Made by a program: the position numbers and the translations under genes. Shown here piece after piece: positions 1-56,778 of a stretch of DNA of 64,000 bases. Position 1 is the stretch's first letter, and every line of letters begins with the position of its first letter. The notes beneath the pieces were generated by a model that did not search any database, was not told the origin of the DNA, and saw nothing but the letters and a program-made list of their open reading frames with translations. The DNA is from Eledone cirrhosa (Eukaryota): assembly GCA_964016885.1 (NCBI GenBank), contig OZ024740.1, positions 104,966,001 to 105,030,000 of the forward strand, in the 5' to 3' direction.

Positions 1-769
1 ATAGCGTAAAAATAAAGGCTTCGTTGGTTTAAGCTATTTTTATAAAGGATGCCACAGAATGTACGATATATAATGATTACAATATTTTTTAGCAACAACT
101 CTAGTCCCACACTTTTGAAGGTTTATTATAACATTCTGTGGCACTTTTGAGCTTGCGCATTTTTCATGTCTAGTTTAATATTTTTTTAAGGCAACGCTTG
201 TAATAACTCTAGTTAAACAGGATATATATTAATAATAAATTATCGTTGTAATGTAATTAGATTATGTAATTGTTATTATAAATTATCTTATAAATATTAG
301 TGTAAGATGTATAAAAATATTTTCAGACTTTTAATATAAACAACTACAAAAAACAATCAATATTAAATCAATATATTATACATAATAGAAAACATAAAAT
401 ATACAATACAAAAACAAAATATTTACATACAATTGCAATTATCAGTGTATATACATTTTCTTTATATTCCCTGAGCAAATTAATAAGATTTGTTTTTATT
501 GTACATAATTTGATGACTTGTTGGAGTGTATTAAAAGATAGCAACAATTTGTGATTAAATTGTTATCTTAAGCAACTCACTTTTTAATAGTTGTTGGCTG
601 AGCGAAATTGTAAAAGCCTATGAGCAAATATAAAAAAAAATACACAAACAACATTTCCTTGTGTTATTACAACATTAGATAAAATAATTGAGCAATGTCG
701 TTATATTTTGCTCTTATTGCACATTAATAGTGTTTCTATTTTTCGGCACAAATCCATTACGGCAGTCCA

Positions 770-898
770 TTACTGGTACTTTATTTTATCGAATTAGTAA
801 GTATGAAAGTCGAAGTTAACCTCGGCAGGATTTGAACTTAGAATGCAAAGGACCATAACAATACTGCAAAGCATGGTGTCTGACGCTCTACCAATACT
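770..898 (-). mobile_element. tRNA-derived SINE (family with GCCTTTCATCC...GATAAAATAAAGTACCAG core), diverged copy
   Basis: Similar to copies at 21120-22200, 28871 and 32511; B-box-like GTTCAAATCC on the minus strand. Confidence 0.7.
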
Positions 899-1291
899 TG
901 TGTTGAGCTGGTCATTAATTTATGGTGGTCGTGCGTGGAGTAGAGCAATCGCTAGTTGAAATATTATGAACAAAACATTTTTATTTGCCGAAGAACATAT
1001 TTTCAATACTGTTTGTGAATGTGACGAAGGAAATACATTCTGATATGGAACAGTGTACAAAGTGTGTCTGTGAATAACATAATGTTACCTCATGTTGTTG
1101 TCAAGACATAATGGATTTCGTATATCCAGTTAGAAGATGAAACCTAGCCATCTCGGATTAGTTATATTTCATGCCATGTGTAAACGTGTTTGAGGATAGC
1201 AAAATATGCGCGTTAATTATAATAATTAGTTAATAATATTACAAAATATACCTAATTAAACTCTTTGCTTGAAATTTTATCATTCTTCGTT

Positions 1292-1328
<37 letters not shown>

Positions 1329-2759
1329 GGAGAGAGAGAGAGATTTATCTAGTCCTTCGCTCAAGATTAATCTATAAGTTTAGATGTTTGCCTTCGTTTA
1401 AGTAAATATTACAGTAAGATTTTTAATATAAACAACTACAAAAAACAATTAATATTAAAACGAAAAAATTATCAATGATAAAAGAAGCGGATGCAACTTT
1501 TTTTTTTATAAAGTTATATTCCTGTTTCTTTAAAGAACATTTCATTTTTGTTCTATTGTAGGCGAAATAATGCAATGGTTTAATAGGGAAGATATAACTT
1601 ACGAATTATGTCTCTAACCGTGTAACGCTTTTTAAGTAGATAACTACAATTGAAAATACTAAAGAAATGGAACCAACAATTCAATTTGAAAGTCGTCTAG
1701 TGACAGTGTATTACTGGTACTTTATTTTATCGACCCCGTAACGATGAAAGGCAAAAATGCAAATGCTTAAAATTTAAATTGCCTTAATTCTATCGTCTGC
1801 TGTTTCATTAAAGGGAGATTATCGTCTGTATTTAATTCTATCGTCTACTGTTCCACTAAACAGATATACCTCCACTATCGTCTCTATTTATACATTTTAA
1901 CTTATAACTTATACACATTTGATTTGAAATATTTTATCTAGTCCCCCCTCTCAATATTATGATGATTTCTTTCGAATGAAACAGTTCTAGTCCTGTAGAA
2001 GCCATTTATATATATAATTGAACTGAGTTAAAAATTCACAATATTTATAATTAAATAAGCTCATATATATATGTGTGTATTTATCTGTTTATTGTATTAT
2101 ATATAATGTGTGTATATACAGGATGTCCCCCAAAAATATATACACACTTCAACAGCATTCTAATAACTATTGCCTGTACAGGTAATCAAAGTGTCAATCG
2201 AATGTTAGTTTCGTGTTTTAACAGTACAAATTTACAATACACACATAAAACCAGTGTATATACATACATGAGTGTGTATACACATACATGAATGTGTATA
2301 TACAATATATATGTATATATATATAGACACATATATTCACGGTGCAACGGTACATTAAAATATAGATGCGGGAGAGGGGGGGTGTATATATAGGGGCGCT
2401 GGGGATAAAGGAGTGTAAAGCGTGTGTAATTGATATATTGAAGGAGAGGAGCGTGCAGCGATAGAGTAACAAATATATAGAGAGGGGGAGAGATGGTATT
2501 GAAGGGGAGGAGTGCAAAGCGAAAGAGTAAGAGATATATATAGAGACGGAACAGATAGAGAGAAACAGGCGTAAGTAACAGTGGAAGAGATATAGAGAGA
2601 GGTACTCTGATTGGTTGAAAATTAGCCAATGACATACGATCACCACCACCACGGCTATCCCCGAAAAATTTTTAAAGAAGCTAGGCATATATGTTAGAAC
2701 ACGAAAAGTGAACATTCTGTTGTTTCACACTTTTCGTGTTCTAACAGATACGTGAACGG

Positions 2760-3425: not shown

Positions 3426-3571
3426 TTAGAAAGTGAGGCTTTTTTACAAAATGAAAAAAAACGAGGTGTCCTACACAAGTGAAAGTATAAGGAAAAAAGA
3501 TGAAATCGAAAATGCAACTGGAGTCATTTTTTTTAAAAACATATTTATTTGGTTCCTTTACTGGTTAAGAT

Positions 3572-5612
3572 TAGAGACAAAGGACTAGCATGGAAGGCTT
3601 GGAAAAAGGGTGGGAGTAGAGAAGGATATACAGCCGCTAAGAGAGAAGCTAGACATCAGGTGTACTTAGCACACAGGGAGGTTGAGAGTAGGAGGTTTGC
3701 CAATGTTCTGCGACGGGAAGATCAGAGACGTGCGGTGTTCCACATTGCAAAGCAGTGGGTAAATGCAAATCAGGAAGTTGTTGGAGATAAATGTGTCCGA
3801 AATGATGCCGGTGTACTTAGTGTCACGAATGATCGGAAAAATGAGGCCTGGAAATGTCATTATGAGAGACTGATGAATGTGGAGAACGAATGGGAGAGAG
3901 AGAAATTACCCTCAGTAGACCCGACAGAGGGACCAGCTATTGAGATTGACGAATATAGGGTCCAAGAGGCGATTAAGGAAATGAAAAATGGTAAGGCTGC
4001 TGGACCGTCGGGGATAGTTGCTGAGATGCTGAAGGCATCAGGGGACGTAGGCACTAAACTGGTTGCACGCATCATCAATCAGGCTATATATGGTGGTGTC
4101 ATACCCACAGACTGGTGCAGCAGTATTCTCATAAATTGCTACAAAGGTAAAGGGGATGCTCTGGAGAGGAGCAATTATGGGGGTATAAAACTGATGGATC
4201 AGGTTATGAAAGTTGCAGAAAGGATATTAGCACAACTAATTAGAGGAAGGGTCAAACTAGATGAGATGCAGTTTGGTTTGGTGCTTGGGAAAAGTACAAC
4301 AGATGCCCTCTTCTTGGTGAGACAATTACAAGAGAGGTTCTTAGAGAAGAATAAGCCACTATACTTAGCCTTTGTTGACCTAGAGAAGGCCTTTAATAGG
4401 GTACCCCGATCTGTCATCTGCTGGTCTCTAAGGAAACTAGGTGTTGAGGAATGGTTTGTGAGGACAGTGCAAACTTTATACAGAGGTGCTGTCAGTAAAG
4501 TAAGGGTAGGAATGGAGTTTAGTGAGGAATTCCAGATACAAGTAAGAATACATTAAGGTTCGGTCCTCAGCCCGCTCTTGTTCATTATAGTCCTCCAAGC
4601 CATAACAGAGTCTGTCCATGGAAACTTCTCTATGCTGACGATCTGGTTCTTATAGCAGAATCAGTAGAGGACCTAGAGAATAAATTCTGGCTATGGAAAC
4701 AGCAGTTGGAAGCAAGAGGACTGAGAGTGAACCTAGCTAAGACAAAAGTGTTGACGAGTAGAAAAGAGGACAACACTCTGATTCCGCCATGTTCGATATG
4801 CTGAAAAGGAACTGGCATAAATTCTATAAAATGCACACAATGCAGATCCTGGGTACACAAGAGATGTAAGTGGGATAGCAGGCAAACTAACAGGTAGGCA
4901 GAAATACGTATGCAGATGTACAGGGAAATTAGACAGCAGAAGACGCATTGATAGAAACATTTTTCAAATGCAGGCGGCTGCTATAGAAATGGTGGATAGC
5001 TTCCGGTACCTAGGAGATTAGATTAGCATGGGAGGGGTGTGTTCCAAGGCCATAGTATCTAAAATAAGGACAGGTTGGAAGAAGTTTAGGGAGCTGCTTC
5101 CTCTGCTGACGAAGAAGGGTTTCTCCCTGCGTACGAAAGGCCAGTTATATGATGCCTGTGTGAGGAGCGCGATGCGGCGTGGTAGTGAGACATGGGCAGC
5201 AACTGCAGAGGATATGCGATGGCTGGAGAGAAATGAGGCAAGCATGCTCCGTTGGATGTGCAATGTCAATGTGCGTGAACGACGCAGCATGGATGTGTTG
5301 AGAGAGAAACTGTGTCTGATAGAATTTAGTGTGCGAGAGAGGGGACTGAGGTGGTATGGACATGTGATGCGCATGGAGGATGACCGATGGGTGAAGAAGT
5401 GCCAGGAAGTGCCAGGAAATGCCAGCTGAAGGAAGACATGGTAGAGGTAGACCATGAAAAACATGGGAGGAGGTGGTGAGAACAGACCTCAGATCGCTGA
5501 AGCTCACGGTGGAGATGACGAGAGACCGTGACAAGTGGAGAGATGCTGTGCTGAATAAGACTCGTCCCACCCTTGCAAGCAGGGAAAAGCAGACGTAAAA
5601 TGATGATGATGA

Positions 5613-7261: not shown

Positions 7262-10200
7262 TAGGATAGAAACATTTGAACAGGGACAGAACAGAGAGGC
7301 AGTACAATAAATGTTTATTAATTTCACGCTCAGGAGAGTGGGGGGTAGGTGGGGGATGACGTTTCGGGCATAAGCCCTTCCTCAGGTGAGAAGTGTGTGG
7401 GAACAGAGTTCAGAAGGTGTGTAGGGGAGTGGTGGAGAGACATATAGCGAAGGGAAACGGTGCGAATGAAAAATTAACAAATAAAGACAAAAAATATAAA
7501 ATAAAAATAAAGCATGATCAAAATAAAAGGAATGAGAAAATTTAAAAATAAAGGCATGATCAAAATAAACTGAAATTAAAAGGGGGCTAAACAGGTGGTG
7601 GAAGGGTGTGGGGTGAGTAGGGGTGGTGGCGGGTGGAGTGGGGAGAGGGAGACGGGGTGTCCGAGCGGGGAGGGCTGAAGGTGGTGTGTGTGTGTAGGTG
7701 TGCGTGTGTATGTGAAAGTAAGGGTTGGGGGAAGAACGGGGTTGCATGTTCAGGAAGAGGTGTGTGTGGGGGTGTTTTTGTGGGTCGGAGTGTCTATGCG
7801 TGTGTGGATAGGGGGTGCGGGGAGAGGAATCAGGAGGCTGAGGGTGTAAATATGTGGTGGGAGGCACGTGTGTGTGGGGTTTAAGCGTGTTGTGGGTGTG
7901 GGTGGCGTGTAGAGAAAAATTTTTTTTTGGGGTGTGTGTGTGGGTGAGTTATATAGGTGATGACGTAAGAGGATGGTTGAAAAGTTGGTAAGTTCCAAGG
8001 ATGTTTGGAGGATTGGTTATAAGTCAATTTCTGCGTGTGGGTAATCCATGAAGCGGTGGTCGGAAGAGGAGAGATGTGGGGTGCGCGCGCAACAGGAAGT
8101 GGTCAGCAGTGGGAGTGCTGTGGTCTGTTGGTGCTGGGAGGTGGTCAGAAGGGCATAGCAGCAGTCGGTGGAATGGTAAGGGGGCGAGGATGGGTAGGTG
8201 TGAAAGTTGGAGTGAGGAGGGTGTGTGTGTGTGTGTGTGTGTATTAGTAGGGTGTTAGTGGGATGAGTGAGTGTGGTGCGGGGGTGTGGGTGGAGCGGGG
8301 AGAGAAGGGTGTGTGTGGTTCTATGGAGGGAGTGTGGTGTACTGGTGTGTGTGTAGTTTGGTGAAGAGGTGTTAGTGGGTGTTAGTATACGGGTGGTGGG
8401 GAGGGGTTGAATGCAGGTGTGAGTGGGGGTTAGTGGTGGTAGGGTGTGTAGAGTTGGTGGTGTACGAGGGTGTGTGGGTACGTGTGCGTGGGGTTGGGGG
8501 GTGTTAGTGATGTTAGTTGCGTGTGGGGTGGGTGGTGTAAGTGGGTGCGTGTGTGCGTGTGATAAGGAGGGGGGAGGAGGAGAAGAGGGGAGGGAAGGGA
8601 TGTTAGTATGTTAGTTGGGGAAGGGTGGTCAGATGAGGGGTGGAGTGGAGGTGTTAGTATTGTTAGTGTGGGGTGGGCGGTGAAAAGGAGGGGTGTGTTA
8701 GTGGTGTTAGTGGGGGATAAGTGTGGGGGGGGGGAAGGGGGCGGTCGAACGCTAAAGGAATAAGGGTGGGGAGTTCAGGCCGGGGGGAGTGTGGGTCTGT
8801 AAGATGAAGATAGTTCGACCGTAAGGCGATGGGCGGGTGTTCCGTGACACTGGAGTAGGCCACAGACTGTGAGATGGCGTGCGGAGTGTCCAGGACCACC
8901 AAAGTGGCGGGCTATGGGGGAACTGCCCCCGAGACGAATATCCCGGAGGTGCTCCGTGACTCGGTGACTCGGTCCGTAGACTAGGTTGGAGGAGGTGCAG
9001 CGGAAGGCATGCCGGACCGAGAGAGAGTGGCCGTTGGGACCCTGGAAGGTGGTGGTGTTGGTGATGTGGGGACAGGTGTTGCAGCGGGGCCTAGAACAGG
9101 GAAAGGAACCGGGGAGGGGGAACAGAGCGTGGGTTGGGGGGTAGGGAGCTGTGGACGAGGAGGGTGCGGAGATTGCGTGCGCGTTTGAAGGAGGGGAGTG
9201 GTGGGGTTGGGAAGATGTGGGAGGTGGAGGGGTCGGACTGGAGGCGTCGGAAGAGGCGGCGGATGGTGCGGTGGAGGGGTAAGGTGGAGGGGTGGTAGGT
9301 GATTGGGAAGGGGAGACGGTGGGTGGGTGTGCGGTGGCGTGGGGTGAGGGTGGTGGAGCGGGGATAGCACGGGCGCGGGTGAGAGCGGTGTAGACGAGAG
9401 AGGGGGGGTAACCTCTGCGGATGAAATGGCTGACTAGGGAAAGGGCCTGGGACTCGAAGTCAGCATCACGGCTACAGAGGCGGCGGATCCTGAGAAGTTG
9501 GGAGTAGGGAATGGAGTGTTTAGTGTGGGTGGGGTGGGAAGAGGTGAAGTCGAGGTAAGAGTGGGAGTCGGTGGGTTTGAAGAAGGCGGAGGTGACGAGG
9601 GAGTGGTGGGAGGGGTCGAAGGCGACGGAGATGTCTAAGAAGTGGACGTGGGTGGTGGGGATAGAGGTGGTGAAGTGGAGGGAGGGGTGGAAGGAGCAGA
9701 AGAAGGAGAGAAAGGAGTCGAGCTGTTCTCGGGTGAGGGTCGTGGCTCCGATACAGTCGTCAATGTAACGACCGTACAGTTCGGGCGTGGGGCCGGTGTA
9801 CTGGGCAAAGATTTGGGCCTCAACATGGCTAACAAAAAGGTTGGCATAGTTCGGGCCCATTCTTGTGCCCATGGCTACCCCCGTGACCTGTTGGTAAAAC
9901 TCACCCGAGAAGGAGAAACAATTTAGAGTGAGGACCAGCTCGGCGAGGCGAAGGAGGGTGGGGGTGGAGGGAATGGGGGAGGGGCGAAGGTCGAGGTAGT
10001 GTTTGAGGGCGCGAAGGCCGTCGTCGTGGGGGATGACTGTATAGAGGGACTTGATGTCTAGGGTGAAGAGGAAGGGCTGTGGGCCGGGTAGGTAGGTGAA
10101 GGAGTCGAAAAGGCACAGGGCGTGGTTGGTGTCGGAGATGTGGGAGGGGAGGGTGGTGACAAGGGGGGCGAGGAGGGAGTCGAGAAAGGCGGAGATGAGT

Positions 10201-10415
10201 TCGGTGGGGCAGTTGCAAGCGGAGACGATGGGGCGGCCGGGGTTGTCGGGTTTGTGGAGTTTGGGGAGGAAGTAGATGGTGGGGGTGCGGGGGGTGCGGA
10301 CGATGAGGTGGGAAGCGGGGGGGGGGGGGGGGCGATAAGGTCTTTGATGGTGGAGGAGACTTGTTGTTGGTAGAAGGGGGTGGGATCGGAGGGTAGAGGG
10401 CGGTAAAAGAGGGGG
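7262..10415 (-). mobile_element. Penelope-like element (PLE), 5'-truncated: RT plus damaged GIY-YIG region and long C/A-rich 3' region
   Basis: Minus frame YFLPKLHKPDNPGRPIVS, TLDIKSLYTVIP, GVAMGTRMGPNYANLF, RYIDD, KPTDSHSYLDFTSSHP, CSRPRCNTC linker, FRCTSSNLVY and EHLRDIR..PIARHF. Confidence 0.9.
7358..7385 (-). ncRNA. Minimal hammerhead-ribozyme-like motif in the PLE terminal repeat
   Basis: CTGAGGA-A-GGGC-TTAT-GCCC-GAAA-CG-TC fits the CUGANGA / helix II / GAAA / UH core; helix I pairing is not evident. Confidence 0.55.
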
Positions 10416-15004: not shown

Positions 15005-16480
15005 TGTGCGACTGATTGACGCACTTACTGTTGAAATGATGGGGGTTTTTTTCGTATTATGATTATGAATAATAATGAAATTATTTTGATTATATATTTT
15101 TGTATGTTATATATATAAGGTTGCTAGCAATAATTAATTGATTATATGTGTTTATTTTTATCTGATATAAATATAATAATTTTTTTATACAACGAAAATA
15201 TGAGAAAAAATAGCCTAACATCGATATCCCAATGATACGAGCTTGGACACTGTAGGGAAATTCAGAATTCTATCTGGCGTGCAGAACCCTTAGTGCCGTC
15301 TCGTAGTCTCATCAGACAAATGAAGAAAGCGTTGCCCCAGAGAATGGTGAGAGAAACGCGTTGAAATAGCAATTCCATATCGCAGGGCTCAGTCTTGCCA
15401 CAGTCGTTACAGCATCTGTTATATATATATATATATATATTGTTTCAGAAGATCTCGTTAAGGGTGAAAGCAGCGATTATTTGCTTAAACTTTAATCTGT
15501 TATTTTAATATATTTATATATATACTAGCTGAGCTACCCGGTGACATCCGGGTATTTTATGAAAGTTACAATATATTTGGCACACATTACAAAATATTTG
15601 ACCGTTCAAATATGATTGCTGAATTTTAACCAAAGTAGGAATTATAGCAGAATATTTATTGCCGTTTGGTCAAAATAAATCATCTAGATAAAAATATTAG
15701 TTTTTTCCAGTGGTGATTTTTTGAATACTGCTCCCTATTACAGTCAGCATATATAATGCTTTACTCATAGATGAATCATTAGGTATGTTGTCAGGGCATG
15801 ACCAAAAAAATACATTTAGATTTTTTTTATTTATCCTTTTCTTTCTTTTTTTTTTTCTTTTTTGCTCAATCTGAACTTCTGAAATTCAAACAACATGTAA
15901 AGACTATTTTAAAAACAACCATTAATAAAATATATTTAGCATTGGTTTATGATTGAATGAAGCATTTACTTACTCATTTCTGTAATTCGGGGAAAGTGTA
16001 TTTAAATTTGTACACTGTAGCTTTCACCAATCTTTGCCTCTATGGCAGTAGGATCTTGTTTGAGGGAGATTTGTTTTCTATTTCTATTAGCTATACCAAC
16101 AGTTATAGTGGCTCACATGACATACATAGATACATACACACACATGTATGTGTGTAAGACAGTTGTTTGTGATTTGAAATGGATTTTGCTAATATTTCTA
16201 GTAGATCGAGTTATCACATAGAACCATTCCTTTTTGCTTCATACATATATACATACCTGAGAAAGTAAGGTGGGATTTGACGGAAATTTGGCTGTTATTT
16301 CTACCCAACAAAGTCCCCACTTTTACTACTTTATATAGCAGAGGTACCCGGGAATGCCTGCATATTCTTCCAAAGTAACACCAAGCAGTAAATTTGCGGC
16401 TTCAGAATTCCTTGCAAACTACATGACTAAGGAATTAGGATCTGTGTGGATTGTCATTGAATGAGGAATTACGACATTGC

Positions 16481-19400
16481 TCATTCCAAAGCCTCTGGAT
16501 AAACAACATTCTTGGTTTTGCCCTGTGGTGCCACAATGAAGAGACAATCAGGGTTCCCAACCCTTGTTGTGCCAACATAGAGTTGACTATGCGAAAAGAC
16601 AGGATCTGCCAGATTCAACCCAATGACTTTCAATGATTGCCCTTGAGATTTATTAATAGTCATGGCAAAACTGAGCCTGATCAGAAATTGAAGTCTTTGA
16701 AATTCAAATGGCAAATCAGTTGGCTTCAGAGGTATTCTGGAAATGAAACAATTGTCACCAGCAAATTTTCCTGACATGATTGCAACTTCTAGAATATTGG
16801 ACATCATATTTTTAATGATGAGTCTTGTGCCATTACAAAGTTTTGGAGGATCCAGATTGTGAAGTAGCATAACCGATGCTCCAAGCATCAGTATCAGATT
16901 GTGTGGAGGAACTCCCGCTTGTTCAAGACTGTTCAAAAATTCAGTTGGATAGTTTACAACCTGGTCTTGAGAAGTGATTGTGTCAACTGATTTGTAGCAT
17001 ATTTTTTCTCCCAATAACATCTCCAGCAGCTTTCTGTTGAGTTCTTTCACAGCAACATTTTTAGGTACTAAGATTGCTTTTTCACAGAGCCATTTCGGAT
17101 CACATTGGCTGGTATGAATGTTTGGAAACACTCTGGCAATCAGTTCTTGTTCTGTGTCAAGGGTATGGACAAATGACAACTGAATATGGTCATTAGAATC
17201 CTTTTCAAGAAGTCCATTTTCCAATTTAAGTAGTTGGATTGCAAACTCACTGACACCTTCATCATCAGTTAAGTGCACTCGCATGTTGGTTGTAAGGCTC
17301 AGTAGCTGAAAGTGGGGCCAGGGATAGGATGTTTTCAGACAGGCATTGACTTGATCAGCTTGAATCCCTCGAAGAATTACAGGCAGAGTTTGTCTGAAAT
17401 CACCAGCAAGAACTATTGTCACTCCTCCCATTATGCAACTATTTTCTCTCAGATCCCTTATCGTCCGGTCCAAAGCTTCAATTGCTCCTTTATGGCTCAT
17501 AGTAGCTTCATCCCAAATTATCATCTTGCATGTTTGCAGAAGCTTGCCCTTGGCGGGTGAGTTCTTCTTGATGTTGCAAAAAGATTGTTTATGCCGTGTG
17601 AGATCGATGGGCAGCTTAAACATGGAGTGTGCAGTTCTTCCTCTATCCAGAAGTGTTGCTGTAATGCCACTTGAAGCCACAGCAAGGGCAATATGTTGCT
17701 TTTGGCGAACTTTTGCAAGCAGGAGGTTTATGAGGAATGTCTTGCCTGTGCCAGCAGGAGCACCGATGAAGAAAAGTCCTCCCCTGTCATTTTGAATGTT
17801 TTCGATGATGTCGTGGTAGGCGTATTTCTGGTCATCCATCAATCGAGGTTCATTTTCATCCACAAACTTACGTAATGCTTGAATATCGTAGTTTGTCTCC
17901 TGAAAAATGTCTTGTGCTATCTCCACTTCTTCATCCCACAGTTAACTAATGTGCTATTCATTGCCTGAACTCGATGGGACAGGTCACAGAGAGCTTGATT
18001 GTAAATCCTGGGAGTATATTCCATATACATATTGCCATGATGTCTTCGAGCTAGGATAGTCGTCCGACATATCGTTTTTGTACTCCTGCCAGAGTAGATG
18101 AGCTTCATCAATTCCACATGCTGTGAGCATAATAGTAAATAATTGTCTTATTTGACTGGCTACTTGAGTGATTGATGCTTCTTCTAGGCACTTCTTCCAG
18201 TGTCCATTGTCCATGCTGTTTACATGCTTCTTGGTATGTTGCGCACTCCCTTCCTCTGAAGCATCTAAGATCCTCAAATGACGTTGGTCTTCGAACAGTA
18301 TGCAGAAGTAGCTGTAAATAAAAACATTCTCTGTTGTTGGGATGGACATTGTAAACACGCCCAATAGCATCACTTGACTTGACTTCATGACCTTCCACTA
18401 AATGACCCTGCTTTCTTCGATTCCATGTCTTGCAATTGGTCCAGGTGTAGTATGTTTGGACTTCAGCATATAGGAGGGATCGAGCAAATTCATCATTCTC
18501 GCAGAGTTTAAAGAAAGCAGTTAGTGTAGTGTCATGTGATGCTTATACCAACTGATGAGCAGTGATCCATTTTCCGGATGGACTGCGAGGTTGACCACTG
18601 TTGGGTGGCGTTGGTGGATATCAAACCCAAAGATTCGCCAGATAGCTTCATTGCTGGAGATGTATCAACCTGTTTGATACCGTTTGACCTCATCCAGCCC
18701 ACCATCATTGAGTTCTTTGTCAGTAATAAAGGTAGCCATGTCATTGCCCTTGTTGATATATTTTGTGACATATAGGATTGCCTTGATGGAGCTGCAATAC
18801 TCAACATTGATATGAGCTTTTAAAAGTTTACACAACATTTTGTTGTGTGGGACGACCCACTGATTGATTATGGTCAGCTCCTCTCCTCGAACTGTTAGGC
18901 TTGCAGTATTGCCTCCATGTTCTGGTCTACGCCTACGATAAAGGGGGGTATCCATTATTGTCAATCCGAGTTTCCCGAATAAAAGCTCTAGGATAATGTT
19001 TGCATTTTTTATCTTTCATGCAGGGAGAGGCTGGATTGATGACTCCACATGGACCATGAATGAGTTTGGACTTGATGGTTTCAAAGAACTCTGGATCACC
19101 ACCTTTATCAGGCAACTCTGCTGAAATGATCTTATCAACATCATCTGGTCTTATCTTCTTGCACCAGATTAGTGTGTGAGAGTGAGGAAGATCTCTCTTC
19201 TGCCACTTAATAGTGGTCATCCAAGCACTAAGCTCACCAAAGATTCTTCCTTCTTTTAGGAGTCAGATGAGTTTCTTTTGCTTTTCGTCGATCCTTTGGT
19301 TTTTGATTTTGAAATAATTCATTTGATATTTCTGACCAGTTTGAATTGCATGTAAATGTAATGAAGAGATCTGGCCGGCCAAACATTCTGACATAGGCCA

Positions 19401-20824
19401 TTGCATCTTGCGTACGTTCATGCATGTAACGTGGTCCTCCCATGAAGCTTGATGGTAGTATGACTGGCTGGCCAATATTTCTTGGGTCAACATCAGAATT
19501 GATGGCATCTCTAAGGTGGATGTAGTTATCTGCCCTCAACTTAGTTTGATTCCTTCGCAGAAAACCCAAACTTTCTGTTTCAATTTTGGCATACATGTCC
19601 ACCATGAACTGACTGGTTACTTCTTTGAATCGCTGAACTTTATTGAAGTGGTCACGTACCATGAAATGATAAGCATAGAATTCTTTGGAGTTGATTGATC
19701 GGCCAGTTTCTTGTCCCGTTCCTGGGCTGATATGCCGTAGCTGAAAATGATATCCATCTTGACCATTCCAAAAGATGAGCGGATATTGGAGTGAATCATA
19801 GGCTCTATAGTTTCACAAATTCGCTCCAAATGTCCACTTCGTTTTTACAAAACAATGTCACATCGTTCATGCTGTTCATCAACCATTATGATTGCAACTT
19901 CATCAGTGACAAGTGCATTGACTCTGCATTCATGTTCTGAAGCTGGGCGTTTGTCTGCCCTAATGATGATTTTACGATCTCTGGTGTTGTTCATATGCTC
20001 CAGTGCATATTTAAATACACTGACGTACATGTGATGTTGGTGAAGCATTTCTTGTAACTTTATGACTATGTAGAACTGCAATCCACCATGGACATTGGTA
20101 ATCTTTGTTGTGGCTGTGTTTCATTTGCACCCATGAAGTAAACCTGCACAAATTTGTGAGGCTCCTGTGAAAGTGGCAGAAGGCCACCCATTAAGTGGTA
20201 ACATTGTCCCTGAATTTTATAAGTTGTACAAAATCTAAAGTCAGTCACATTCCTGTCAGCCCCAAAAGATGTCATTTGAAAGGCAGAATTATATTTTATG
20301 ATGTATTTATTGAAGTGTCGTGCTTCTGGTGTATGCTGAAGGAGCAGATTCTTCAGAAATTCAGGAGGTTCTTGTATTGTTTTAAGGCTCACTTTGCCTT
20401 TTGAGCAGCATAGACTTGGTGTTTCTGTTGCCCACTTCTTGGCAACACAATACTGGCAGCATTTGTTCATTTTCCCAATGTTGATTTGTGGATTACTGCT
20501 GTAGTCCTTTTGGGGCTTATAAGAAAAAGCACCCATCAACCAGTTCATTTTACTTGTGGCTTGTTCTCCTGCTCGGGTAGAACGATGTGCTTGATTAGCA
20601 TTTCGTCTGATTTGCTGCTGTTCCTTAATTTGTTGTTCTCGTGTAGCAGCAGTCCTTTGTTCCCTTTCATCCAAACAGTGTGCTCGTACTAAAGCTGTTT
20701 GGGTTCTGTTAGCAGCTAGACGGTCATGCCGAACTTCTTCACTTTCTTCAGATCGCTGTGTTTTCTTTCTCTTAGCCTCTGAAGATGACCTTCTATATAA
20801 TGATCTGGAACGTTTTCTAGGCAT
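16481..20824 (-). pseudogene. Helitron RepHel transposase (HUH Rep + Pif1-family helicase), frameshifted; helicase segment 16481-17926 still open
   Basis: MPRKRS start, CQYC..CCSKG zinc motif, DLFITFTCN, WQKRDLPHSHTL (HUH), YVTKYINKG (Y2), GAPAGTGKT, IIWDE, GDFRQ, FAMTINKSQGQS. Confidence 0.93.
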
Positions 20825-20851
20825 TTGAAGTGATATTATTACACACCACAC

Positions 20852-20914
20852 GATAAAATAAAGTACCAGTAATGCACTGGAATAATTGCTGGCCTTGTGC
20901 CAAAAGTAGAAACA
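20852..20914 (+). mobile_element. 5'-truncated SINE tail with 17-bp TSD
   Basis: ATTATTACACACCACAC at 20835-20851 and 20915-20931 flanks GATAAAATAAAGTACCAG...GTAGAAACA. Confidence 0.85.
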
Positions 20915-21119
20915 ATTATTACACACCACACTCTTTCCGAAATAGAAACAACTATAGAATGTATTGTTCACTCAGTAAAGTTGTTTTAAATTATCTCTTT
21001 ATATGAATGTATATTAGGTGTAATTAATTTTAGACATATGTAGAAAATATTGGGATTTCAGATTGTATCCCCAAAAATGACAAACACTACAAAAAAAAAT
21101 ATTTTCTGTGTTAATTCAA

Positions 21120-24649: not shown

Positions 24650-25294
24650 GGTGAGAGGGAAGTATTGTTGTTACTGAGATAAATCACATGATATTTTAAC
24701 ACTTCAAGAATTTCTCTATACTTTCACAGCTTTATATATATATATGCATATTTTACTTCGCATGTATATACATAATTGAGTTATGAAGGTTAAAAGAAAC
24801 AACGCATGCTGGATAATGAAATTGTCAAGATACCACCTGTATAAAAACAACTATACAACTAATAATATATGCGACTACTACTATTAGATACGAAACAACG
24901 GTTACAGTACCAACGTTGGTGTTCAGACCTTGGTGGAGGTCGGTTAAAATATATTTTTCTACCGGTTTTCCGATACGTTCTACAAGCTGGATTTCCTCTA
25001 TAAATAACCACTGCCACGCTTCTACCTTTTACAACGTATATATATATAGGTTTGCCCTTCTTGTATTACTACTGTTTCCACTAGTCTTAATCTTCTGCTT
25101 TATTCACTTGACTTCGTGTAATAGTGTAGCTACATTATACATACAGACACACACATATATATATATATACATTGTGTATATTCTTTGTAGCGGATATTTT
25201 TATTCCCCGTGACTTTGGCATCGATGAAAACATTAAAAACAATGTCTTTGTTGCTTTCTCGTGAGAACTAGGCATTATTGTTTTTGTCCCAACA

Positions 25295-26872
25295 ATGAAT
25301 ATAAGACGGTTACCGCAAAGCTGGTTTACTCAACTTGGAAGCAGAGTTTCTGACAGCAAATTATGTCCAGTGCCCTGTTGGCGACACGGTTTCAACCCTT
25401 GTAACTGTCGCCGTGCTGCCAGTTACTCGAAGCTACACCAAATAAATAGATCTGAAAAGAGATATATCCGGCATACTTCAAGACCTGTTTTTAGTGGACC
25501 TGACAATGTTGAGAATCCTCGTCTAGCTCCCTTACAAGTTACTTCTATACTTCGTGTTAACGAACTCAGTGTCGATGTGAACGAGGGAGCTGTGAAATAT
25601 TTCGAATCCAACCAGCTCCAGTCTAACAATCCTATTGAAGATAGACGAAGCAATGTCAAGTTTGTCGGCAGCCATAGATTTTTGTTCGGTGTTTTCGATG
25701 GACACGCTGGCTGTGCCTGTGCACAAGCCATTAGTGAAAGGCTTTATTATTATATCGCGTTGATGATTTCACCTCCACATTGGATTGAAAAAATTGTTCA
25801 CTTATTGAAGGACCGTGGAATAGATATTCACTCAACGGGTATCTTGGACTGGTACCGAGGCCCACACGACTATGTCAACAAAGAACTTTCTCCGATGTAT
25901 AGTAAAAGTTTGGTTAAACTAGCAAATGAAATATTAGCGCTGTATATTGAAGAAGAATCCACGATTGATGATCATTTGTTGAGTGCATTTTGTCGACTGG
26001 ATCAAGATATTGTACAGGAAGCACTACCGAATTACTCCAACAAAGTTAGCAACTTCGAAGCGATGCAGATAGCCTTTTCTGGTTCCTGTGCTTGTGTTGC
26101 AATGGTGGACGGTACAAACTTGTACGTTGCTAACACAGGCGATTGCAAGGCCGTGTTAGGGGTCAACGTAGGAGATGACCAGTGGGAAGCCAAAGAACTA
26201 TCTCATGATCACAATGCTGACAATATTCAAGAATGTAGAAGACTAGTGAATTCTCATCCGAATGAAGGGACCCATTTGATTAGAAACGGTCGCTTATTGG
26301 GGGATTTAGCCCCATTAAGGGCCTTTGGAGACGTACGATACAAATGGCCGGCCACTGAGTTGAAACATGTCGTCAAAACCATGGCTTATTCTACACCATA
26401 CGGAAACAACCTTATTCCTGCCCACTATCACACCCCACCTTATCTGACAGCTGAGCCTGAAGTAATCAGTCGTCGTCTCACTCCAAAGGACAAGTTTTTG
26501 GTGTTAGCAACTGATGGATTATGGGAGATGGTCAATCCAGAGAAAGTTGTAAAAATCATAGCCGGCCACATGGAAGGGAAACAAGTCCATGTCAATTTCA
26601 GGTTACCTTACAGTGAAATCAATTTAGCGGATATTAACCAGATCTTGTTGAAGAGGAAAAGTAGCCTGGCCAATAAAGCTGAGGATTCTAACGCTGCTAC
26701 ACATTTAATCCGTAATGCTCTTGGACCGGAGCATGGCCGAGTGTCTGCTATGTTGACTCTACCAATTCATATATCACGTCTATACAGAGATGATATAACT
26801 GTTACTGTCGTATATTTCGATACAGACTATATACGTGACCATTTTCATCAGTCTTCAGGTGAACAGCTATAA
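25295..26872 (+). CDS. PDP1: Pyruvate dehydrogenase [acetyl-transferring]-phosphatase catalytic subunit, mitochondrial (PP2C/PPM family), 525 aa, single coding exon
   Basis: Intact ORF with an Arg/Ser-rich transit-peptide-like N-terminus, NQLQSNNPIEDRR, FGVFDGHAGCAC, ANTGDC, PLRAFGD, TPPYLTAEPE, LATDGLW, NAATHLIRNAL, RDDITV. The symbol denotes the PDP1/PDP2 family. Confidence 0.93.
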   Translation: MNIRRLPQSWFTQLGSRVSDSKLCPVPCWRHGFNPCNCRRAASYSKLHQINRSEKRYIRHTSRPVFSGPDNVENPRLAPLQVTSILRVNELSVDVNEGAVKYFESNQLQSNNPIEDRRSNVKFVGSHRFLFGVFDGHAGCACAQAISERLYYYIALMISPPHWIEKIVHLLKDRGIDIHSTGILDWYRGPHDYVNKELSPMYSKSLVKLANEILALYIEEESTIDDHLLSAFCRLDQDIVQEALPNYSNKVSNFEAMQIAFSGSCACVAMVDGTNLYVANTGDCKAVLGVNVGDDQWEAKELSHDHNADNIQECRRLVNSHPNEGTHLIRNGRLLGDLAPLRAFGDVRYKWPATELKHVVKTMAYSTPYGNNLIPAHYHTPPYLTAEPEVISRRLTPKDKFLVLATDGLWEMVNPEKVVKIIAGHMEGKQVHVNFRLPYSEINLADINQILLKRKSSLANKAEDSNAATHLIRNALGPEHGRVSAMLTLPIHISRLYRDDITVTVVYFDTDYIRDHFHQSSGEQL

Positions 26873-52247: not shown

Positions 52248-53347
52248 CTAGCTAGAAAAATGCGTACAGCAAAAAAAAGTAATATTGTTGGAACAAACCT
52301 TTAAAAATACAGGACAAGGAAGTAAGATAAACCTTTAAAAATACAGGACAAAGAACAAAGAATAGGACAAGGAATATAAATTTTTACAATAATATTAGTG
52401 GCAAAATTCAATTGGTAAAAAATTGAGTTTCCATCATTACACCAATTACAACTATGATGTTCCGCATGCATCCACTCCAACCATGATCACTTGTCTGTCA
52501 TCTTTCCCGGTCCAACTCCTCGCGGATGACCCGGCGCAACTCGGACTGGGTCGGAGCAGGAACTGGAGGGGGAGAGGGAGGGGTACGGGTCTTGACTCTG
52601 GGACGATGACGGCGAGTGACCAAGGTGAATGGGCCCGTGTTCGACTCGGAATCCTGCTGGTCCTCGATGACACTTTGAGGCACGGTTGACGGTTCCGGAC
52701 TGGCTTCATGGGCAGTGGTAGAAGGGCAGGTGGATAGGGCAGAGTGCTTCTTCCTGGGAGAGCACTTGAAGCAGGTGAAGCCGGCGCCGGACTCGTTGAA
52801 CCACTTCCAGACAGCACTGGGCATGTTGGCGCAGCAATGATGAAAGTTGAAGCAGGCGACGAGGGGGGAGGAGGTGGAGGCGTTGGTGCAGGAGCAACAG
52901 ACTGCTGATTTGGGAGTCATTGTAGCTGGGGGATGCAGGCGCTGAGGGGGCTCGAGTAGAAGGGAAGAACAGAAATGAACCATGATGACTTTTCCTACAT
53001 TTTTCCTGGCCCACTTCCTCATGAACCAATGAACCAGTTGGTACAACTCGGACTTGGAGGAGGAACACAAGACAGGGATCAATTTCATTGTATTGATATT
53101 TCTCATTAAGTAATTTCATGTTACTCAAATAAATCACTTTTATTTGATCAATTATCTATTTTTCCAATAAAATTTTTGCCACTAATATTATTGTAAAAAT
53201 TTATATTCCTTGTCCTATTCTTTTAAAGTTTTATCTTAGTTCTTTGTCCTGTATTTTTAAAGGTTTATCTTACTTCCTTGTCCTGTATTTTTAAAGGTTT
53301 GTTCCAACAATATTACTTTTTTTTGCTGTACGCATTTTTCTAGCTAG
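52248..53347. repeat. ~160/175-bp inverted repeats (52248-~52406 and ~53174-53347), both ending CTAGCTAG
   Basis: Direct reverse-complement match apart from one ~15-nt indel in an internal sub-repeat. Confidence 0.92.
52460..52920 (-). pseudogene. Captured LINE (CR1/L2-type) ORF1 N-terminal fragment with a PHD-like finger
   Basis: GC-rich island: MTPKSAVCCSC..VAC..FHHCC..W..FTCFKC, then ELRRVIREELDRER and (frameshifted) VIMVGV, the usual ORF1 layout. Confidence 0.6.
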
Positions 53348-53811
53348 TTTCCTATTTTTCAAGGCAATGCAAACAACAACTACTTAATTAAATAGTTATT
53401 ACTTTAGTTACTTCTATCAAAAAATCCCAAAAATGATGTTAATGAAAACTATAGGTGAAAGTGAAGCTATTCTTTTGTGACCTCTTAGTTACTTGTACCA
53501 ATTTTGAATTTAATTCAAGCTACAGTGTCAGCCTGTGCATTGGAGTCACAGAAATAAGTTGAGATATTTTATCTAATTGGTACAAGCATCCACTCCACAT
53601 GGCGGGGACATAGGTCAGATCGTGGAGCACTCACCTATCTTAAAAATATTAACTTATGATAAATAAGAGTCATTTAAGAAAATACAATTTTTTTAAATTA
53701 GTAGGTGAGCATTAACAACTGAATCTAAATGGAGCAAATTTGCACCATTTGCATTTAGTTGAAAATAACATTTTAATTAAACATGACAAATTCTAATGCA
53801 ATAGAAGGCAA

Positions 53812-54082
53812 ATATCAATTTTCACATGCAAATTTTTTGGGGATTTTTTTCACGCGCGCCATTTTTGGTCGATTTTTTTGTCAATTTTTCACATGCAAAT
53901 TTTTTTGGGTTTTTTTGATTTTTTTTCACGCGCGCCATTTTTGTCGATTTTTTGTCAATTTTTCACATGATAATTTTTTTTTGGATTTTTGGATTTTCTT
54001 CACGCACGCCATTTTTGTCGATTTTTTGTCAATTTTTCACATGATAATTTTTTTTGGATTTTTGTATTTTCTTCACGCGCTT
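53812..54082. repeat. 73-76-bp tandem repeat, ~3.5 copies
   Basis: CACGC(G/A)C anchors at 53851, 53927, 54001 and 54074. Confidence 0.85.
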
Positions 54083-54662
54083 TTTGGTATGCATTATTCA
54101 TATGTTTTGCTTGTTCTGATTGTCTTTTTTCTTTTATTTCAGCAGCTTTCCGTTTTTTATACTCCCTATTCCTAATGGCATTTTTTCTCCGTTTTTCATT
54201 CTCTTTATGAATTTTTTGATCTTTGGGACATTCGGAAGCACTATCAGTCTCATTGAATTCAAATTCAGGTCCAGGATTTAATTCAACACAACCGATAATA
54301 AGCAATGATAAGATCAGTGCACGTGTTCTATATTTCTGATTGGAAATCGGGTAAATTCGTTTATTGGATTTGTAAAAAGCCGCCTGAATGTGAATTTCAT
54401 CATTCGAATTGCCCGATTGTGGAATTGTTTCATTCGAAATGGAAATATTGCATTTTCGCGCCAGGCAAAAAAGTAATAAGCCGATCAAAAAGCCGCGAAA
54501 CGTATATGGTGATTTTTTTCGAAAGCCGCGAAACGTATGAAGTGACCTTTTGCGATTTTTTTTGCGACCATTTTGGCGAGACTTTTGCAGGGAAACAAAT
54601 TTTTCATTTGTAATAGTCAAAATAAATAAGCCGATAAAAAAGCCGAGAGACGTCATTTTCAT
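54000..54662 (-). CDS. Element-encoded 220-aa ORF with hydrophobic segments, a 2A/StopGo-like motif and a K/R/E/Q-rich helical tail; possibly a truncated transposase 5' end
   Basis: ORF track plus manual translation: RALILSLLIIGCVELNPGP at 54267-54323; same strand as the element's TC..CTAG polarity. Confidence 0.5.
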   Translation of the reverse strand: MKMTSLGFFIGLFILTITNEKFVSLQKSRQNGRKKNRKRSLHTFRGFRKKSPYTFRGFLIGLLLFCLARKCNISISNETIPQSGNSNDEIHIQAAFYKSNKRIYPISNQKYRTRALILSLLIIGCVELNPGPEFEFNETDSASECPKDQKIHKENEKRRKNAIRNREYKKRKAAEIKEKRQSEQAKHMNNAYQKAREENTKIQKKLSCEKLTKNRQKWRA

Positions 54663-54987
54663 ATGTCAAATGAGCACACTATTCGCACCTATCGCAAATG
54701 AGTTCACTACTCGCACCTATCGGTACAAAAAATAGCACAACTATTCACAACTATTAGTACAAATCCAAATGATTTTCTGAATTTCTAGTATATCAATCAG
54801 CGACTGCTTTGAAAGAGAACAATGCAGTGAGTGATTACTCATTTGAATATAAATAGAAGACAACCTCAACTAGTTTGCAACGTGTGACCACTTATCGCGA
54901 GATAGGAGAACATAATAGCTCCTAATTAGCTCAATGATTAATGTTTACTGCCACATTGTATCAACATTTAAAATTCAAATTCAAAAA

Positions 54988-55545
54988 AATAACCGCAGTC
55001 ACTGGGGGGGGGTTCAAATAACCACCGCACCCCGAATAACCGCAGTCACTAGGGGGGGTTCGAATAAGACCCTCACCCCAAATAACAGCAGTCACTGGGG
55101 GAGGGTTCGAATAAGCGCCTCACCCCGAATAATCGCAGTCACTGTGGGGGGGGGTTCGAATAAGCGCCGCACCCCGAATAACCGCAGTCACTGTGGGGGG
55201 GGGGGGGGTTTCGAATAAGCGCCTCACCCCGAATAATCGCAGTCACTGGGGGGAGGGTTCGAATAAGCGCCGCACCCCGAATAATCGCAGTCACTGGGGG
55301 GAGGGTTCGAATAAGCGCCGCACCCCGAATAATCGCAGTCACTGGGGGGAGGGTTCGAATAAGCGCCGCACCCCGAATAACCGCAGTCACTGGGGGGAGG
55401 GTTCGAATAAGCGCCGCACCCCGAATAATCGCAGTCACTGGGGGGAGGGTTCGAATAAGCGGGGGGGGGGTTCGAATAAGCGTCTCACCCCGAATAATCG
55501 CAGTCACTGGGGGAGGGTTCGAATAAGCGCCGCACCCCGAATAAC
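54988..55545. repeat. 48-bp GC-rich minisatellite, ~11 copies
   Basis: Unit GAATAAGCGCCGCACCCCGAATAATCGCAGTCACTGGGGGGAGGGTTC. Confidence 0.93.
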
Positions 55546-55582
55546 CCCTTATCCTCCTCTGACCGGTCCCAAGAGATGCATC

Positions 55583-56184
55583 AAATGCACAGAGCGTCAC
55601 CCTTACTCACTCACTTACTCACTTGAACACAGTTTTTTTCATCAAACTTTGATCATAACTTTTTTTGTGCTGAACGAAATTTCGAGATTTTTAGCTTAAG
55701 AGATGTGCAATGATTTACTCTCCATGCTCATATAACTTTCATGTGATTTTGATAATCGGAAGACATTCTAATAATGCTGTAAAGAGACGATTGCCAACGA
55801 AATCACTAAGACAACAATATGTGCTGAACGAAATTTCGAGATTTTTAGCTTAAGAGATGTGCAATGATTTACTCTCCATGCTCATATAACTTTCATGTGA
55901 TTTTGATAATCGGAAGACATTCTAATAATGCTGTAAAGAGACGATTGCCAACGAAATCACTAAGACAACAATATTACTAAACTAAACCGACTACCGTCGG
56001 TTTAGGATATATATATATATATATACAAATGAAAAGATTAATATGTTGCGTACATATCTAAAATCTAATTTGCAAACAAAATGTTCACTTGCATACTATA
56101 TTGGATATATACCAGATGTAATCTCCGATTTATACAATTTAAGTATTTAAATCATATTTGCGTACATGCGTAATGAGTACGAAA

Positions 56185-56233
<49 letters not shown>

Positions 56234-56778
56234 CGTTCATACAAACATACAAGTATAATCATATTTATGAAGGTTATATGCATTTATACATAGACATTAT
56301 ACATACTTATTTAATAATACCAACACCAGAACCAAACATTTCTTAATAAAACAACAATAATCATTTATTTCTTGATATTTACACGAAGAAGAAGAAGAAG
56401 AAGAAGAAGAAGAAGAAGAAGAAGAAGAAAATGATGATGAGGGAGGGGGGGGGGAGAAAGAGGAACAAAACAAGTGGAGGAGGAGGGGGATTATTGGAGT
56501 CGGAAGAAGAGAAAATGCACAGAGCGTCACCCTTACTCACTCACTTACTCACTTGAACACAGTTTTTTTCAACAAACTTTGATCATAACTTTTTTTGTGC
56601 TGAACGAAATTTCGAGATTTTTAGCTTAAGAGATGTGCAATGATTTACTCTCCATGCTCATATAACTTTCATGTGATTTTGATAATCGGAAGACATTCTA
56701 ATAATGCTGTAAAGAGACGATTGCCAACGAAATCACTAAGACAACAATATTACTAAACCGACTACCGTCGGTTTAGGA
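55583..56778 (-). repeat. Duplicated element 5' terminus (55583-56007, with an internal 154-bp tandem duplication, and 56513-56778) separated by microsatellite-rich filler
   Basis: Near-identical blocks, each ending in the hairpin CTAAACCGAC-TACC-GTCGGTTTAG then GA|T on the plus strand. Confidence 0.9.

Follow-up and report, generated by a model that had tools for sequence, protein, structure and literature searches.

A Helitron2-type element of Eledone cirrhosa with A/TC...CTAG/T ends and a long fold-back at its right end

A 4,531-bp transposable element lies in a 64,000-nucleotide stretch of the Eledone cirrhosa genome (assembly GCA_964016885.1, contig OZ024740.1, positions 104,966,001 to 105,030,000; hereafter the window). 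It behaves as a Helitron, falls within HLE2 (Helitron2) in the wide sense and matches no described subtype, and its new part is a long, self-matched fold-back at the right end. The ends, the insertion between A and T without target duplication, a partner that encodes the RepHel transposase, a 13-bp repeat, a fold-back geometry shared by five lineages and concerted change of its arms are directly established. We think it probable that the element is a non-autonomous HLE2-type derivative, copied by RepHel in trans from a hairpin-bearing A/TC end (the slash marks the junction with host DNA) and stopped at CTAG/T by a fold-back of its last ~190 bases.

Results

On the minus strand the insert reads A/TC...CTAG/T, from 56778 to 52248, between an A and a T of a satellite. 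The satellite register is unbroken and no target-site duplication is present: rejoining the flanks restores the satellite unit, and the window contains 208 occurrences of the rejoined 24-mer. A first-pass annotation, made from the letters alone, had placed and oriented the insert in just this way. Both ends have near-identical copies elsewhere in the same genome. The exact right-end motif has 96 matches, which form 47 inverted pairs and 2 singles and correspond to ~49 copies of what we call family A. Because the motif recurs in ~49 copies, a chimeric assembly, a danger that the annotation had raised, does not explain the ends. The two ends co-occur in 19 paired copies, every one with A before and T after, and the sites are mostly TA-rich DNA; apparent flank repeats at these pairs are mostly 0–4 nt or lie within TA runs. 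Family A copies are 98.9–99.9% identical over the 890-bp segment compared, which together with the RepHel partner supports the earlier proposal of a distinct, recently mobile rolling-circle subfamily. Among Logan contigs, both ends are found at high depth in organism C and as traces in organism B; RAD reads and short contigs do not reach across the window locus.

Immediately after the terminal TC stands a hairpin with a 4-nt loop (-10.2 kcal/mol, z = -5.6 against 200 shuffles), while the last 40 nt of the element form no short hairpin beyond chance (-1.2 kcal/mol, z = 0.0). The first pass had seen both, and had overlooked a 13-bp asymmetric repeat, a second 5' end at 56007 and an inverted-repeat pair of ~190 bp. 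The 13-bp repeat directly follows the 5' hairpin at element position +25; its inverted copy ends 30 nt short of the right end, and the inner arm of the fold-back contains a third. It is the asymmetric repeat of Helitron2. The two 5' ends stand 771 bp apart in the window copy and likewise in 8 of the 19 paired copies. Across the families described below, 5' ends are fixed and right ends are sometimes ragged (as in family B), and full starts are in places preceded by stacked pieces of 18–266 nt, each beginning with TC. A search of the element against Rfam gave 0 matches. At two loci (L125, 4690–4990, and L028), hairpin-only 5' pieces of 25–27 nt stand head to tail ahead of the full start.

The last 1.1 kb of the element is built on the ~190-bp inverted-repeat pair, which finishes exactly at the terminal CTAG. 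The right end indeed lacks a short hairpin, but it is not unstructured, being one arm of a fold-back predicted to pair through its final base at -266 kcal/mol. CTAG is present at 46 of the 48 listed family A right ends, and a T comes next in all 48 (47 in host DNA, one in an inverted dimer). In each of the 49 family A copies the element body runs directly into the inner arm, and therefore the fold-back module is never free-standing. Exact matches to a motif just ahead of this arm number 1,585 across the genome and 0 in the control. The open frame within the loop has no Pfam match. We regard the fold-back as a likely terminator and, in view of one inverted dimer, as a possible self-primer.

A RepHel-bearing partner, which the annotation had thought worth seeking, exists in two 11.2-kb copies (C13 and C10) that align to the window element at 98–99% on either flank of a 7.5-kb insert. 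This 7.5-kb stretch, absent from the window copy, encodes DUF6570 (Pfam, E 9e-18), Helitron_like_N, PIF1 and UCH (Pfam, E 2e-10), and the HUH, YxxxY and Walker motifs of the partner's RepHel are intact. A deletion junction near 54080 joins ~1,789 to ~9,358 of the 11.2-kb element with a short GCGC microhomology, and on this alignment the window element is an internal-deletion derivative of the longer one.

Because the RepHel of the 11.2-kb element carries DUF6570 and UCH, the element is of HLE2 type and not a hybrid. The annotation had allowed for a hybrid subfamily; the HLE2-type transposase, the Helitron2 asymmetric repeat at the ends and the recurrence of the layout in five lineages speak against one. 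DUF6570 is a marker of HLE2, and UCH, enriched in its subgroups c and d (PMC11417382), is present in family A and replaced by OTU in the more distant lineage E. An F/Y-x-R before Rep motif 2 is diagnostic of HLE2 (PMC4067079) and is found in family A as YFWRLEYQQRG, with the Helentron-type F-W-R kept; motif 2 itself is RGAPH, neither RGSPH nor RGLPH. Pfam returned no AP endonuclease match in family A. The A/T target of all 19 family A pairs is unlike the usual T/T target of HLE2, to which exceptions are described. The family A Rep is 23–26% identical to the HLE1 proteins of the same genome, falls outside the HLE1 clade and, in two fast trees, groups with homologues of a DUF6570-rich set apart from in-genome HLE1. 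These trees, made by quick and FastTree methods, included no curated Helentron, FoHeli or proto-Helentron rows; one left out three long-branch rows, redundant rows and most metagenome rows, and the other two HLE1 rows lacking the motif. The nearest homologues are P0001 and those of Rhodnius and Ephydatia.

A search with Rep found three sister families in the genome (B, C and D; Rep 63–90% identical to family A). Family B (Rep 90%) has the 5' hairpin of family A with one compensatory pair, and its right ends read CTGG/T in 16 of 24 loci, with 2 near-complete and 6 shortened. Family C (Rep 63%; 12.8 kb) has an open 2,230-aa frame and young copies; a different, longer hairpin follows its A/TC, and CTAG/T closes 15 of 15 right ends. 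In family D (Rep 65%) the GGTA loop is retained on an unrelated stem of 10 bp, and 2 of 2 right ends read CTAG/T. The fold-back is present in all four families, each with a short repeat at +25 to +29 and again 30–34 nt from the right end; the repeat measures 13 bp in A and B, 10 in C, 12 in D and 15 in lineage E. The window itself begins within a non-autonomous family C copy (1–2748, minus strand, right end ~775 bases before the window start) with the long hairpin after A/TC, a fold-back and CTAG/T.

Lineage E was met at L260–L264, on megabase contigs filed in two bacterial metagenome-assembled genomes (G001 and G002) that carry a eukaryote-type RepHel. Its Rep is ~39% identical to family A and 68% identical to an Ephydatia sponge protein; because its RepHel proteins are thus closest to sponge, the contigs are likely animal host DNA within the bins. 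An A/TC followed by an 8–9-bp stem and a GGTA loop stands upstream of the gene at 4 of 5 loci. At 3 of the 5, an inverted pair ~3 kb downstream (173–229 bp, 99–100% identical) holds a 15-bp repeat found again after the 5' hairpin. Among 14 short G002 copies chosen by their 5' end, 7 have arms of 124–152 bp at 98–100% identity, 4 of them ending in CTTG/T, and in the other 7 no right end was seen within 3 kb. The right-end motif for short copies was derived from G002, and 6 short G001 copies scanned with it gave no information.

Beyond these lineages, inverted pairs of 178–304 bp downstream of RepHel at 3 of 47 metagenome loci of at least 6 kb appeared to be separate miniature inverted-repeat transposable elements (MITEs) and were rejected. 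Viral contigs searched for relatives yielded two weak matches only, and a search of longer proteins gave no result. On one metagenome contig (L137, 16078–16110), an A/TC with a GGTA-loop hairpin follows a TA run downstream of a related RepHel and is possibly the start of another family member.

The two arms of the fold-back have changed together. Within an element they are ~98–99% alike, and between families they are 81–84% (A versus B) and 52% (A versus C) alike; 23–31 of the A/B differences are common to both arms, against 6–14 other variable columns. Of 49 loops in family A, 45 have one orientation, 1 is flipped, 1 is of B type, 1 is replaced and 1 is lost, and one family B copy has a flipped loop also. 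At the 5' end, 7 B-type matches have the loop flipped, possibly by one event, as against 439 A/B matches in which it is not.

Some rearranged copies deserve separate mention. An inverted self-dimer (L334/L335, G000:C15:42865200-42871400) consists of a complete element, a 275-bp collapsed fold-back and then a reverse copy of itself of ~3 kb, its halves differing at 2 of 1,657 positions. It would be the product expected from 3' snap-back priming, in a single instance. A chimeric copy (L336, G000:C1636:123050-127273) combines a family A body with a reversed B loop and otherwise B-type arms; its tips are A-type, and two substitutions not in the references occur in both arms. Its host site is a ~595-bp tandem array whose unit orientation seems to switch across the insert. 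A very abundant, palindromic, AT-rich short repeat hosts one insertion (L069 flanks) and replaces the loop elsewhere (L337, 3990–4170).

Mechanism and alternative explanations

In the mechanism that we favour, the RepHel of the family likely copies the window element in trans, probably beginning at the A/TC hairpin end. By analogy with the chemistry of Helraiser, the enzyme would nick before the T of TC, peel off the strand that runs from TC to CTAG and transfer it as a single strand. The last ~190 bases would then fold on their internal inverted copy, which likely brings about the stop at CTAG/T, and the fold-back would take the place of the small terminator hairpin of ordinary Helitrons. Its sequence suggests that it is homologous to the repeat-bearing end hairpin of Helitron2, enlarged to ~200 bp. 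Occasional intramolecular recopying of one arm from the other may keep the arms matched, and the paired 3' end could prime synthesis back along the element, perhaps by accident only. A polarity from TC to CTAG agrees with the constancy of the TC ends, with the raggedness of some right ends and with the stacks of TC-starting pieces.

Several observations weigh against this mechanism. A head-to-tail junction, the mark of a circle, has 0 matches in the assembly and is not among the joints listed from Logan contigs. An identical in-frame TAA interrupts the helicase of both long family A copies, and C10 has a frameshift as well. No fold-back was seen at 2 of 5 lineage E loci; among metagenome relatives (28–45% best-segment identity), no end motif was found at 80 loci and no fold-back was accepted, in short-read contigs that may not reach the ends. 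The C15 inverted dimer is a single case that host repair or assembly could explain. Differences between arms persist, near the loop in family A and as a one-arm 15-bp deletion in the window copy, so arm correction does not occur at every cycle. Loop flips are rare, and a rolling hairpin is therefore not an obligate route of replication.

A bolder role for the paired 3' end is possible, though we consider it unlikely: after cleavage at CTAG, the end paired to the inner arm would regularly prime the second strand and give a hairpin-ended duplex, instead of or before a circle. The stem reaches exactly the last base in families A–D, the C15 dimer runs back on its own strand with nearly identical halves, arms are homogenised and loops flip; Helraiser, moreover, requires double-stranded donors, and PMC5876387, in its accessible text, leaves minus-strand priming open. 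Yet there is only one dimer among 49 copies, its halves resemble each other no more than they resemble copy L066, and loop flips fall far under 50%. Reversing the polarity is an improbable solution. The element would then be a Helitron2 of ordinary polarity with a reversed gene, its fold-back end the origin and its small hairpin the terminator. Reversed genes are known (PMC3627910; PMC5148889), and on the plus strand the repeat does immediately precede a hairpin that stands ~24 nt from the end, the arrangement at the 3' end of the Helitron2 of Bao and Jurka (PMC3627910). Against this, TC...CTRG and the gene share one strand, as in HLE1, and truncations take away the fold-back end while short pieces retain the TC end.

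It is very improbable that the 1.1-kb module is a separate element with terminal inverted repeats, a MITE or foldback riding at the end of an ordinary Helitron. Long terminal inverted repeats around an unconserved loop resemble a MITE, the doubled CTAG of family A can be read as a 4-bp duplication, and true MITEs occur near RepHel genes in metagenome loci. The doubled CTAG is not found in B, C or D, however, and this passenger is largely refuted by the attachment of all 49 copies and by the short repeat: in all five lineages the arm shares one with the distant 5' end, its sequence peculiar to the lineage and its place a fixed 30–34 nt from the end. Still harder to credit is a chimera of HLE1 ends and an HLE2 body, or an artefact of satellite assembly. 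TC...CTAG at an A/T target is the signature of HLE1, and the window holds an HLE1 element too, but the HLE1 3' hairpin is absent and the same ends accompany HLE2 proteins in other organisms. Both ends are covered by contigs of the same and of another organism, and ~49 copies at unrelated flanks refute an assembly artefact.

Table 1. Features of the family A element in the window (all on the minus strand).
Feature	Position	Remark
Whole non-autonomous element	52248..56778	4,531 bp, between A and T of 54-bp satellite
5' hairpin, 10-bp stem, GGTA loop, right after terminal TC	56753..56776	GGTA loop on other stems in B, D, E
Asymmetric terminal inverted repeat, 13 bp, left copy (element position +25)	56742..56754	
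Extra 5' module: the element's first 266 bp and ~500 bp of filler rich in microsatellites	56008..56778	common to subset of copies
Second (inner) 5' end: A/TC and identical hairpin (55982-56005), then 154-bp tandem duplication	55666..56007	
48-bp minisatellite, upstream of RepHel frame	54988..55529	
RepHel frame, N-terminal remnant	54077..54665	alignment to 11.2-kb element
37/74-bp tandem array, downstream of deleted gene	53842..54080	
Motif kept in families A, B, C just ahead of inner arm	53344..53370	
Inner arm of fold-back, begins CTAG, third 13-bp repeat copy at 53305-53317	53159..53347	
Fold-back loop, ~740 nt	52422..53158	sequence not kept between families
205-aa stop-to-stop loop frame	52498-53115	Cys/His pattern like PHD finger, weak lead only (Atlas score 0.83)
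Outer arm with right 13-bp repeat (52278-52290), finishing at terminal CTAG	52248..52421	private 15-bp deletion in this copy

Other features of the window

The window also contains a decayed canonical HLE1 Helitron (15525–20971, minus strand) with a PIF1 frame at 16481–17941 and fragments of Rep; its GC hairpin lies 7 nt ahead of CTAG/T. Its right end, at 15525, is the single clear 3' end of an ordinary Helitron that our scans of the window gave, beside four weak candidates; the annotation had counted three. A pyruvate dehydrogenase phosphatase gene (PDP1) forms a single 535-aa frame at 25265–26872 on the plus strand, 93% identical to Octopus sinensis, and reverse-transcriptase fragments (RVT_1) lie at 3537–4556 (plus) and 8775–10415 (minus). 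The 54-bp satellite occupies 43259–64000, with a GC skew of about -0.88, a strong strand skew, and higher-order periods of 108 and 162–164 bp.

Comparison with described elements

Among the closest described elements are FoHeli3-5 of Fusarium oxysporum, also called HLE2-reverse. According to the accessible parts of PMC5148889 and PMC11417382, these have an HLE2 RepHel without AP endonuclease, a short asymmetric inverted repeat whose right copy lies 20–40 nt from the end, and several 5' ends on one 3' end; PMC5148889 also describes a 5' stem-loop upstream of the left repeat and no short 3' hairpin. A 5' hairpin without a 3' hairpin, which the first pass had singled out, is thus real here but not itself new. 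In the same accessible text, FoHeli3-5 start with TGCCT, end with CTCCTGT, have no stated target preference and are described with neither a long fold-back nor a third repeat copy; unlike them, the present elements have A/TC...CT(A, G or T)G/T ends, a GGTA-loop hairpin, a fold-back of 120–240 bp and a UCH or OTU domain.

The combination of ends with protein has its precedent in the proto-Helentron of Phytophthora. Like the present element it joins an HLE2-type protein with DUF6570 to a 5' stem-loop, a CTAG 3' end and insertion between A and T without duplication (PMC4067079, PMC11417382). It differs in starting with TT (here TC), in a ~12-nt repeat 3.6 kb from the stem-loop (here at +25) and in motif 2, RGSPH against RGAPH (PMC4067079). 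Proto-Helentron is reported in oomycetes only, with no similar element in 404 genomes, and the accessible text describes no long fold-back (PMC4067079, PMC11417382). A/T-CTAG ends on an HLE2 protein, like the FoHeli3-5 hairpin arrangement, are therefore already known.

Helitron2 in the sense of Bao and Jurka shares asymmetric repeats of 8–15 bp, one beside a terminal hairpin and the other inside the hairpin of the opposite end, as well as compensatory changes, and its reversed genes occur; read backwards, the TC-hairpin-repeat end found here matches its 3' end (PMC3627910). In that group, however, the repeat-bearing hairpin is short, it stands 0–2 bp from the end and the elements insert after TTTT (PMC3627910), unlike the ~200-bp hairpin, 0.1–0.75-kb loop, repeat 30–34 nt in and A/T target in TA-rich DNA seen here. 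In their domains, HLE2 subgroups c and d, mostly of lungfish and axolotl, are alike in having DUF6570 and UCH and no endonuclease (PMC11417382). The 5' TC, 3' CTRR and A/T target without duplication are those of canonical Helitrons (HLE1, Helraiser; PMC5876387), but the short hairpin 10–12 nt before CTRR is missing, motif 2 is RGAPH and not RGLPH, and DUF6570 is present. Helentron differs in its AP endonuclease, for which there is no match here, and in RGSPH.

In the accessible text of PMC13085455 and PMC8788227 the fold-back design is not described, and that of the Octopus vulgaris repeat paper gives Helitron counts only. Within the literature searched, which took in neither Repbase nor image-only supplements, we found no description of the long terminal fold-back, of the conserved GGTA-loop start or of this combination in animals.

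Discussion

These elements present a third design of Helitron end, in which an HLE2 protein meets HLE1-type cut sites and a long fold-back. The fold-back stays self-identical across lineages whose Rep proteins are only ~39% identical, and A/T-CTAG ends on an HLE2 protein had previously been reported from Phytophthora alone. The genome contains at least 1,585 such modules, which structure-based HLE1 finders likely miss. Two matters can be tested in this family, namely which end of HLE2 is the origin and where the second strand comes from for a single transposed strand, and family C, with young copies and an open 2,230-aa frame, is a ready substrate.

More tentatively, and with the odds in our judgement against it, the elements might form an undescribed, widespread animal branch of Helitrons, marked by RGAPH, by A/TC followed by a stem, GGTA and the returning stem, and by CTDG/T ends (D = A, G or T). 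It would move through a self-primed, hairpin-ended linear duplex, with the 120–240-bp fold-back acting as terminator and primer. That branch would then extend the pairing of HLE2 proteins with cut sites of HLE1 type beyond the oomycetes.

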